Of a stretch of DNA of 8,034 nucleotides, positions 3,414 through 5,775 are shown piece after piece (within the stretch, counting starts at the first letter, position 1; each line of letters opens with the position of its first letter). The notes beneath the pieces were generated by a model. That model saw only the letters and a list, made by a program, of their open reading frames with translations, was not told where the DNA came from and did not search any database. Source of the DNA: a virus (taxonomy: Duplodnaviria; Heunggongvirae; Uroviricota; Caudoviricetes); the IMG/VR virus record IMGVR_UViG_2695420602_000004. The stretch is one strand, 5' to 3'. A program made the translations under genes and the position numbers.

Positions 3414-3815
3414 GTGGCAAAAGTTTTTACACAAGAAGAGCGGGAAAAAATTAAAGGGCAGGTGGTGGAACTCGTACGCCAGAGTGGGCGCGAGACATTA
3501 CGACAACTGGAAGCTAAAACTGGGGCAACAAGATATCTGATGAGCGTTCTGGCCAGAGAGCTGGTTGCCAGTGGCGATGTATACAGCTCTGGTTACGGGT
3601 TATTCCCGTCTGAACAGGCGCGTAAGGACTGGCAAAACGCCCGCAAAAAACTCTCGAGGGCAAAGGTGAAGAAAACAGCTGTGATTGATCCGGACCTTAT
3701 CTGGTCGTTACCTGATGGAGAAATACGTCGCTACGACAGTCGCCTAAACATAATCTGTCGCGAGTGCCGGATGAGTGAAGTTATGCAGCGCATACTGGCA
3801 TTTTATCAGGGATAA
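3414..3815 (+). CDS. ren: Ren-like protein (133 aa), GTG start
   Basis: AGGAGG (3404..3409) 4 nt before GTG 3414; C-terminus ...ICRECRMSEVMQRILAFYQG and an internal ...KTGATRYLMSVLARELVASG resemble remembered lambda Ren (...FKECRQSAAMKRVLAVYG; ...LTGATVTSINQAA...); sits right after the replication gene, as ren does in lambda. Confidence 0.55.
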   Translation: MAKVFTQEEREKIKGQVVELVRQSGRETLRQLEAKTGATRYLMSVLARELVASGDVYSSGYGLFPSEQARKDWQNARKKLSRAKVKKTAVIDPDLIWSLPDGEIRRYDSRLNIICRECRMSEVMQRILAFYQG

Positions 3816-4004: not shown

Positions 4005-4937
4005 ATGGAAATCAACAAAGAAAAATTGTCAGGTTTACTTAACTACTTCGAGTCTCGCAAGAAATACGCTGCAACTCGAATATCTAGTTTATCCAGTCAG
4101 AATGAGATCTGTTTCGCTTTGTCAGGATTGACGTTTCGAAACGGGCCTTATGTTTTCCAAGACGTAGGTGAATTAAGGGAGGTACTTCATCCACCAGGAG
4201 AGATAGAGTTAGCCAAAGCGCTTAAGAGCAAGTCGCTACTCAGCGCTGTTGCTCGTCATATGCCCGCAGTTACGCATGAGCTTGCGTTGCAAAGCAGTGA
4301 GTCGAAATTTTCTCAATCAGACCTGACTATCGGATGGTGGATCATATCCGCGATCCGATGCCGCACACTCACCGATATACTTGTTCCTGCAGTAGCAAGT
4401 GCATCTTGGGATGTATTCCCTGCTCTTCAAGCCAACTCGTGTGAAGTCCAACTTCTTGAGGACGTGCCGGCAGTTCGGAGAATAAGCCCAAGTGTAGAGA
4501 TATCAGTAGAGTCTCTCGACTGGGTTCAAGAGAATCTCAAGCGTTGGATAGATCTGCTAGAGCAACCAGCATTCCGGCTCGCTATTGATTCTTTAACTAC
4601 TCACAACCAACACGCGAATTTGAGAATGGCTGCTGCTGCTTTATGGGCAGGATTTGAAGCGCTCTTTGGAATCAATTCAGAGCTTCGTTTTCGTCTTGCT
4701 CTTATGGCCGCAGCATATCTTGAGGAGCGAGGGCCTGATCGTTTAGCCACCTATCGTAGGGTTAAGAAGCTGTATGACTACCGTTCGAAGGCAGTGCATG
4801 GGGGAGCTACGTCAGATAACTTTTTAGTTGAGCATATAATTGAGGTACGAGTGCTTTTATCCCGATTAGTGTGTCGCATGACAGAGATCGGAAAAATGCC
4901 CACAACCGACGATTACGAGGAACGGCTTCTAACTTAA
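4005..4937 (+). CDS. 310-aa cargo protein with C-terminal R-x4-H motif (R260-S-K-A-V-H265); candidate HEPN-family RNase / abortive-infection-type defence protein
   Basis: Single long ORF with only a weak SD; 189-bp structured intergenic region upstream and 11-bp-stem hairpin downstream; motif YRSKAVHGG (nt 4782..4799) in what reads as an alpha-helical C-terminal region; the flanking genes are conserved lambdoid genes. Domain call is inference from the motif only. Confidence 0.7.
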   Translation: MEINKEKLSGLLNYFESRKKYAATRISSLSSQNEICFALSGLTFRNGPYVFQDVGELREVLHPPGEIELAKALKSKSLLSAVARHMPAVTHELALQSSESKFSQSDLTIGWWIISAIRCRTLTDILVPAVASASWDVFPALQANSCEVQLLEDVPAVRRISPSVEISVESLDWVQENLKRWIDLLEQPAFRLAIDSLTTHNQHANLRMAAAALWAGFEALFGINSELRFRLALMAAAYLEERGPDRLATYRRVKKLYDYRSKAVHGGATSDNFLVEHIIEVRVLLSRLVCRMTEIGKMPTTDDYEERLLT

Positions 4938-5029: not shown

Positions 5030-5318
5030 TCAACCTCCAAGATTAGGTACAATGAAGTGGTCAACAAAAACTGGCCACCGCAAGAAAACACGTCTATGTC
5101 AGTATTTATTCCGAACTTCCGTTGTTCGCTCAAAGCGGACTAAAAGGTTAGCTTGTGTCGGACTTTGCGTATTAAAAGAAGTGCAGGTGGTGACTAGTGG
5201 TTGAGCCCCATTTCCACAGAAAAAATCAGAGAAACTATACCCAATAGTTGTATTGAATCACTGACGAGACAGCCTCATATTCATCAGGACTGGTGTACGT
5301 CCAATACAGGAGGTTGTG

Positions 5319-5408
5319 GTGCTGGTTCTCAAATGTGCGCTGGCTATTACGGCTGTAATGGCGATTTATTGTCTTGCTATTGTTCTTATGGATCGCCTTT
5401 CTGACTGA
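5319..5408 (+). CDS. Candidate 29-aa hydrophobic membrane peptide (MLVLKCALAITAVMAIYCLAIVLMDRLSD), GTG start
   Basis: AGGAGG (5308..5313) 5 nt upstream of GTG 5319; product is one predicted transmembrane helix with a charged tail, the profile of small type I toxins; not in the supplied ORF track. Could be chance. Confidence 0.3.
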   Translation: MLVLKCALAITAVMAIYCLAIVLMDRLSD

Positions 5409-5416
5409 TTTCATAT

Positions 5417-5444
5417 TGGCGAGGTAACGGTAGTTAAGTAGAAT
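5417..5444 (+). promoter_or_regulatory. Candidate hok mRNA promoter (TTGGCG-16-TAGAAT)
   Basis: -35-like 5417..5422 and -10-like 5439..5444 place a start near 5451, the 5' end of the segment complementary to the 3' end of the hok transcript (5825..5837). Confidence 0.3.
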
Positions 5445-5619
5445 GGCTGCGGGTGCTTGAGGCTATCTGCCTCGGGCATGAACACCAACGGCAGATAGAG
5501 AAAAGCCCCAGTTAACATTACGCGTCCTGCAAGACGCTTAACATTAATCTGAGGCCAATTTCATGCTAGACACATGTAGGTTAGCCTCTTACGTGCCGAA
5601 AGGCAAGGAGAAGCAGGCT

Positions 5620-5775
5620 ATGAAGCAGCAAAAGGCGATGTTAATCGCCCTGATCGTCATCTGTTTAACCGTCATAGTGACGGCACTGGTAACGAGGAAA
5701 GACCTCTGCGAGGTACGAATCCGAACCGGCCAGACGGAGGTCGCTGTCTTCACAGCTTACGAACCTGAGGAGTAA
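5620..5775 (+). CDS. hokD: Hok-family type I toxin (51 aa, MKQQKAMLIALIVICLTVIVTALVTRKDLCEVRIRTGQTEVAVFTAYEPEE), HokD/RelF-like
   Basis: Sequence recognised as Hok family (TM helix plus conserved LCE.R....EVA.F.AYE); an in-frame upstream ATG at 5563 gives a 70-codon extended ORF; SD-like AAGGAG at 5604..5609. Confidence 0.85.
   Translation: MKQQKAMLIALIVICLTVIVTALVTRKDLCEVRIRTGQTEVAVFTAYEPEE

Follow-up and report, generated by a model that had tools for sequence, protein, structure and literature searches.

The window, that is, the whole 8,034-nt stretch of DNA analysed here, is a segment of a Qin- or lambda-like Escherichia coli prophage, and the block at 5180–5450, which was the part used as a query, is 100 % identical to the chromosome of E. 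coli MY203L1. Read from left to right, it contains genes for cI/Cro-like regulators, a YdaT-family gene, replication genes and a DUF977 gene, followed by a HEPN-domain gene (4005–4937), a gap of 680 nt annotated as empty, hokD, rem, ydfU and the gene for the Q antiterminator; an ORF open at the left edge (1–378) presumably resembles an IS1 transposase. The toxin gene hokD (5620–5775, plus strand) matches the Hok/Gef profile PF01848 (E = 1.2e-23, 82.9 bits) and is annotated under this name in the identical locus of MY203L1. Its mRNA leader, including the sok target region, spans positions 5451–5625 of the plus strand (Rfam RF01794, 115.3 bits, E = 2e-26), and is preceded on the same strand by a promoter-like site, TTGGCG-17-TAGAAT (5416–5444). 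The mok ORF (5563–5775, 70 aa) is in the same frame as hok, and their ATG codons (5563 and 5620) are 57 nt apart, so Mok would here be an N-terminally extended Hok.

The 680-nt gap contains, just 5′ of the hok promoter, a small ORF on the plus strand (5319–5408), which has a GTG start (5319–5321), 29 codons and a TGA stop (5406–5408), and codes for the peptide MLVLKCALAITAVMAIYCLAIVLMDRLSD. The hok promoter-like site belongs to the neighbouring cassette and is outside of the small gene, with its −35 hexamer situated 8 nt past the stop codon. A Shine-Dalgarno sequence, AGGAGG (5308–5313, plus strand), is separated from the GTG by 5 nt (TTGTG), and there are 301 nt from the start of the ORF to the hok ATG. 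The ribosome-binding site, its spacing, the start codon, the ORF and the peptide are all exactly as given in the initial annotation, which had placed the ORF ca. 300 bp upstream of hok; nevertheless, its title described the ORF as strongly ribosome-bound, which overstates a sequence that offers only a consensus Shine-Dalgarno and no such observation. The peptide has a GRAVY of 1.74 and a best 19-residue Kyte-Doolittle window of 2.58, in agreement with the single predicted transmembrane helix proposed initially, and ends in an acidic C-terminus (DRLSD).

The GTG at 5319 is present in all 80 unique homologous sequences, whereas the in-frame GTG at 5316, chosen by the automatic ORF call, is found in only 29 of them and was discarded as an initiation codon. 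In the same set, 78–80 sequences retain the GGAG core of the Shine-Dalgarno (5309–5312), and the predicted fold leaves most of this site unpaired. Two perfect AGGAGG motifs with a start codon 4–8 nt further on occur in the window, the other one corresponding to the actual start of the gene annotated at 3414; as shuffled versions contained 0.59 on average and 26 out of 200 contained at least two, the motif is not significant by itself, and the case for the small ORF rests on conservation and not on its Shine-Dalgarno. A terminator-like hairpin at 5343–5362 was set aside because it has only three G-C pairs and is located inside the coding sequence.

Upstream block and putative promoter

A conserved non-coding block (5115–5252, plus strand) precedes the small gene and includes the palindrome ACTATACCCAATAGT at 5234–5248; an Rfam search with this block did not give any E-value below 0.38. 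The region homologous to the window starts around positions 5090–5125 in 106 out of 132 loci, whatever the gene situated upstream. This gene varies with the prophage: it codes for the HEPN-domain protein in the window, and for a DUF4145, FRG-domain, methyltransferase, putative acetyltransferase or DUF551 protein elsewhere, so that this position looks like a cargo hot spot. The HEPN protein of the window did not match any PADLOC, Pfam or NCBIfam model.

Immediately after the block there is a putative promoter for the small gene, composed of a −35-like TTGAAT (5253–5258) and a −10-like CATATT (5276–5281), both on the plus strand and separated by 17 nt. With 8 of 12 matches, it is proposed from its likeness to the consensus and scores below the threshold of a standard scan. 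The CATATT hexamer is invariant in the 80 unique sequences, with variation at the flanking positions 5275 and 5282, and it is kept even in loci whose homology to the window starts only 30–70 nt 5′ of the ORF; the −35-like hexamer, in turn, is kept as TTGAA(T/G) in HannyBb-type loci with a diverged spacer. Within 5150–5560, this and the hok promoter are the only promoter-like sites on the plus strand. The invariance of CATATT and its retention in loci with short homology suggest that the small gene has its own dedicated promoter, from which transcription would start near 5287–5289. Since we found no terminator-like site between the small ORF and the hok promoter, transcripts might also read through into hok. 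On the minus strand, another promoter-like site (5261→5234, GTGATT-16-TATAGT, 8 of 12 matches) faces away from the small gene and overlaps with the palindrome ACTATACCCAATAGT, an arrangement that could represent a divergent promoter or, alternatively, an operator situated in the conserved block.

Conservation of the reading frame

The 5180–5450 block was found in 1,855 of 5,426 complete E. coli genomes, i.e. in about a third of them, mostly with 90–95 % identity, and many more genomes carry the divergent allele described below as type B. The small ORF is almost always unannotated in those with the block, and PGAP omits it in most RefSeq genomes. We examined the conservation of the frame in homologues retrieved by BLAST and in 120 further prophage loci identified in IMG/VR by scanning with a degenerate DNA pattern. 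The 29-codon frame is intact in 10 out of 10 BLAST-retrieved homologues; likewise, among ca. 125 full-length copies retrieved with the pattern, a single one departs from the 29 codons, through a stop loss, and none of them has an indel or a premature stop. These copies comprise 31 DNA haplotypes and 32 substitution events, of which 17 are synonymous, 14 are non-synonymous, all of them conservative, and one is the stop loss. The excess of synonymous changes over the ca. 30 % expected is significant (P = 0.005), and P rises to 0.054 when the eight codons constrained by the search pattern are left out. The events are distributed over codon positions 1, 2 and 3 as 7, 6 and 19, and the frame of the small ORF is the best of the six. 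Within the allele found in the window (type A), the flanking non-coding DNA is approximately as conserved as the ORF.

Two other frames from the same region did not withstand this comparison. A 67-aa ORF in the +2 frame was rejected because an indel breaks it in 8 of the 10 homologues. The initial annotation had also pointed to a basic ORF on the opposite strand, at 5232–5414, as a possible overlapping gene. This ORF exists, with corrected coordinates 5235–5414 (59 aa plus stop), but its frame is not conserved: its ATG is lost in 4 of the 10 homologues, two of the 10 contain an in-frame stop, and the substitutions amount to 6 synonymous, 25 non-synonymous and one stop. The possibility of an overlapping gene is thus refuted. 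The expectation that the frame of the small ORF would be kept across homologues with synonymous-biased substitutions was, in turn, borne out. Frame conservation and the synonymous excess support the presence of a genuine small gene in the supposedly non-coding gap, and we consider it very probable that the 29 codons do encode a tiny membrane protein.

A second allele and its published counterpart

A divergent form of the gene, designated type B, encodes a product of 34 aa, MSDDISLAMEGALAVVAVVGVYCLVVFLMDRLGN, and forms intermediate between types A and B also exist. In an alignment with the ORF of the window, type B shows 50 % identity in protein and 64 % in DNA; BLASTP reported local identities of 39–62 % between type B and a padded query. 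The type B gene has its own start, AGGAGG-5 nt-ATG, and retains the hydrophobic core and the LMDR motif, the core shared by both types being ALA(I/V)xAV(M/V)(A/G)(I/V)YCL..L(M)DRL. The dN/dS ratio was 0.43–0.50 between type A (the window) and type B, and 0.17 within type B. In the eight loci examined, all in lambdoid prophages of EHEC-type strains, type B is located directly upstream of a near-identical hok cassette. Were there no protein product, it would be difficult to account for two alleles so diverged that have retained an open frame, a ribosome-binding site, a hydrophobic core and a common genomic slot. The predicted topology is uncertain and inconsistent between the alleles, since a Glu in type B corresponds to Lys5 of type A.

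Searches of 5.8 billion proteins and 1.84 billion cluster representatives with a profile from a 47-column alignment, the first row of which includes 18 residues derived from non-coding sequence, returned 65 and 22 matches, respectively, all from Escherichia and with E-values down to 1e-14. A pattern scan of genome contigs gave 42 matches and identified the ORF in Escherichia ruysiae, Shigella flexneri and a contig from a metagenome-assembled genome (MAG) labelled as Haemophilus; apart from two further MAG contigs described next, the remaining matches, of which the three from Photobacterium were inspected, were judged to be due to chance. The Haemophilus contig (L152) carries the small ORF together with the hok leader, and this contig and those from MAGs labelled as Collinsella and 'Candidatus Scatousia' (L138 and L143, respectively) all carry the promoter motif of the small gene; with their E. 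coli prophage sequence, the three are probably mis-binned. The family is restricted to prophages of Escherichia and Shigella, and is absent from E. coli K-12.

The surroundings of the type B gene differ from those of type A. Type B seems to share a transcript with the DUF551 gene situated 5′ of it, instead of being preceded by a CATATT element. Directly 5′ of it there is a second small hydrophobic ORF, coding for MNWPEAFAITGVAMAIAFLVYVICR in locus L176 (3882–3959) and for MSWPDAFAIVGITMAIAIIVYSICRWL in locus L107 (minus strand), which has its own GGAGG and overlaps the end of the DUF551 gene. By eye, its product is reminiscent of the type A core (AxAIT.V.MAI); however, BLASTP produced no alignment, and the possibility that this product (MNWPEAFAITGVAMAIAF...) is a paralogue of the small peptide is unsupported. 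Additionally, a perfect palindrome of 20 nt, GATATGGGAATTCCCATATC, separates the stop codon of type B from the hok promoter (4115–4134 in L176, and also in L107), and is absent from the type A locus of the window. It is not associated with a T-run on either strand and may thus be a protein-binding site rather than a terminator.

The type B allele has a counterpart in the literature. XECs145, with the type B peptide at the end of its sequence, is a translated intergenic small ORF found by Ribo-seq in E. coli O157:H7 Sakai (Hücker et al., 2017; PMC5597208, S2, S3, S8, and S10 Tables), and its product was predicted to reside in the inner membrane through one transmembrane helix. In LB it showed an RNA RPKM of 79.1, a ribosome-footprint RPKM of 346.1, a coverage of 0.99 and a ribosome coverage value (RCV) of 4.35, the mean RCV of short annotated genes in this medium being 1.55; in BHI, its RCV was 1.14 (PMC5597208). 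These values concern type B, which is 50 % identical to the peptide of the window, and Sakai contains several prophage copies among which reads may multi-map. In RefSeq, XECs145 corresponds to ECs_5710 (34 aa, YP_009502606.1, hypothetical protein), located directly 5′ of the Mok/Hok gene in the Sakai prophage Sp6. It thus shares with the ORF of the window a lambdoid prophage and the slot 5′ of the hok promoter, the common core, a consensus Shine-Dalgarno and one predicted transmembrane helix, and differs from it in having 34 instead of 29 residues, with an acidic N-terminal extension, MSDDIS.

The exact peptide of the window is also deposited, as a hypothetical protein of E. coli B108 (OSK45992.1), and allelic variants exist as WP_000960667.1 ('MULTISPECIES: hypothetical protein [Enterobacteriaceae]') and as ACT39199.1 and ACT43394.1, from E. 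coli B REL606 and BL21. The deposited variants are labelled as 'hypothetical' or 'membrane' proteins, without functional annotation, and exact-sequence literature searches with the peptides, WP_000960667 and XECs145 found no mention in the main text of articles. The gene is therefore uncharacterised rather than undiscovered, since the family is present in databases and one of its alleles is in a published list of translated small ORFs. Our analysis adds the recognition of a family with two alleles, its fixed slot 5′ of the prophage hok gene, an invariant promoter element, and evidence against the toxin and antisense readings.

Possible roles of the small membrane protein

The explanation that best accommodates these results, to which we assign a probability of ca. 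60 %, is that 5319–5408 represents a true gene, expressed independently, whose product is an inner-membrane protein of 29 residues with a single pass. It belongs to a narrow family of Escherichia and Shigella prophages, the two alleles of which occupy a fixed slot directly 5′ of hok/sok in Qin- and lambda-like prophages. The gene would be transcribed from its own sigma-70-type promoter, TTGAAT-17-CATATT (5253–5281), with a 5′ UTR of ca. 30 nt, and be efficiently translated from the exposed consensus Shine-Dalgarno and the GTG start. The peptide would then enter the inner membrane as a single helix, with a conserved face, A-L-A-x-x-A-V-x-(A/G)-x-Y-C-L, that precedes an L-M-D-R-L at the membrane boundary. 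Judging from this pattern of conservation, which includes small residues, a Tyr-Cys pair and the LMDR motif, the helix could pack specifically against a membrane partner, as do other small modulators of bacterial membrane proteins and prophage 'moron' proteins, rather than causing indiscriminate membrane damage. The peptide is probably made in the lysogen at tolerated levels, and hence would not be a classical type I toxin repressed by RNA.

The small gene could alternatively be an accessory of hok/sok, either because the peptide acts in the membrane as an immunity factor against Hok or as a co-toxin, or because transcription of the gene reads through the hok promoter and tunes the levels of hok mRNA. 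The distance from the stop codon to the hok leader is 42–43 nt, being fixed at 42 nt in 108 of 118 type A loci, and type B occupies the same slot in the 8 loci examined, so that two diverged alleles are retained beside near-identical hok cassettes; the lack of a terminator-like site before the hok promoter also agrees with this possibility. Nevertheless, the same linkage would be expected from shared ancestry in a mosaic prophage slot, and both elements are found apart. Intact copies of the small gene occur without hok in approximately nine prophage contigs and in a Shigella flexneri chromosome, where homology breaks directly after the stop codon. Conversely, hokW from 933W-type phages, in which homology extends from position 5432 of the window onwards, is not accompanied by the small ORF. 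The same is true for hokD from the Qin prophage of K-12 MG1655 (L181, 1645119–1645872), where relBE abuts hokD and homology starts only at 5606, 14 nt before the hokD ATG; there, relBE replaced everything upstream, and hokD lacks the small gene, the hok promoter and the leader with the sok region. The presence of each gene without the other indicates that the small gene is a separable module. Moreover, the same Hok sequence is found alongside small proteins sharing only ca. 40–50 % identity, without signs of co-variation. We thus consider an accessory role unlikely, and a dedicated partnership with Hok at the protein level, with the small protein as an inner-membrane immunity factor or co-toxin, is decidedly unlikely. 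If this were the case, the prophage hok/sok would be a three-component system and the two alleles 5′ of hok would reflect the partnership; the interest of the gene would increase should the peptide prove to be such a partner.

The initial annotation suggested a possible second type I toxin. Such a peptide would act by depolarising or permeabilising the inner membrane, and would be restrained by an antisense or nearby small RNA. The peptide certainly has the dimensions of one, being shorter than 60 aa and hydrophobic, with a single predicted transmembrane helix and a size similar to those of TisB and ZorO. It is also encoded on a mobile element, as occurs with Hok/Gef (PF01848), TisB, ZorO, ShoB, Ibs and Ldr, and adjoins a proven type I system; additionally, the two tandem small hydrophobic ORFs of type B loci reproduce an arrangement used as a criterion in a systematic search for type I toxins (PMC2887945). 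However, that search covered O157:H7 and the small peptide is not among its candidates. We did not find a sequence relationship with any toxin family: the peptide had no match in Pfam, NCBIfam, PHROG or PADLOC even at E ≤ 10, nor in PDB, and did not match PF01848 at E ≤ 10, whereas the neighbouring Hok did so at 1e-23. Its C-terminus is acidic (DRLSD) and not basic or aromatic, as in those toxins. Neither was there a detectable RNA antitoxin or a leader hiding the Shine-Dalgarno. The minus strand at 5300–5540 contains no promoter-like site with at least 8 of 12 matches, although the same scan recovers a Sok-like one at 5644→5615; the fold energies of both strands were no better than those of shuffled sequences (z = −0.11, +0.21, and +0.17); and a permissive Rfam search identified only the hok/sok leader, downstream of the small ORF. 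A genuine antisense RNA might nevertheless lack consensus signals of this kind. Type I toxins are expected to be translationally silent during growth, but the Shine-Dalgarno is open, the predicted 5′ UTR is of only ca. 30 nt, and the type B homologue was well translated in uninduced, growing Sakai cells (RCV of 4.35 in LB and of 1.14 in BHI), which would not be expected from a lethal peptide under tight repression. A classical type I toxin subject to such control is improbable in view of these results, although the peptide may still be toxic upon over-expression, as are many small hydrophobic peptides.

Finally, it is very unlikely that the frame is open by chance and lacks a functional protein, the conservation of the DNA reflecting a recent origin or a regulatory function, as DNA or RNA, towards hok or prophage transcription: the similar conservation of the flanking DNA in type A, the non-significance of the Shine-Dalgarno-plus-start motif alone and the omission of the ORF by PGAP would fit this, but they are opposed by a third-position and synonymous excess specific to this frame, the retention of the frame, Shine-Dalgarno and peptide motifs by type B at 64 % DNA identity, the Ribo-seq coverage of 0.99 of the homologue, and the coincidence of a mosaic breakpoint with the stop codon.

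The small gene escaped the systematic work on small proteins done with K-12, the strain with the most thorough catalogue of them, from which it is absent because relBE replaced the region. A conserved and probably expressed small membrane protein tied to the best-known type I cassette is a suitable target for asking whether it is an extra component of hok/sok or a lysogenic-conversion factor; if it is merely another prophage membrane peptide, the gain is a better annotation of a gap usually called non-coding. The closest parallels to the preferred reading, by analogy, are small inner-membrane regulators such as AcrZ, MgrB, MgtS, KdpF and CydX, which are produced in normally growing cells and display conserved faces of small residues, and the membrane proteins encoded by prophage 'morons'. 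Some of these small membrane proteins are named in PMC10903887. The small gene is not homologous to the AcrZ/MgrB-type regulators and, unlike them, is confined to prophages of Escherichia and Shigella; it resembles all of these proteins in the size of its product and in its single transmembrane helix.
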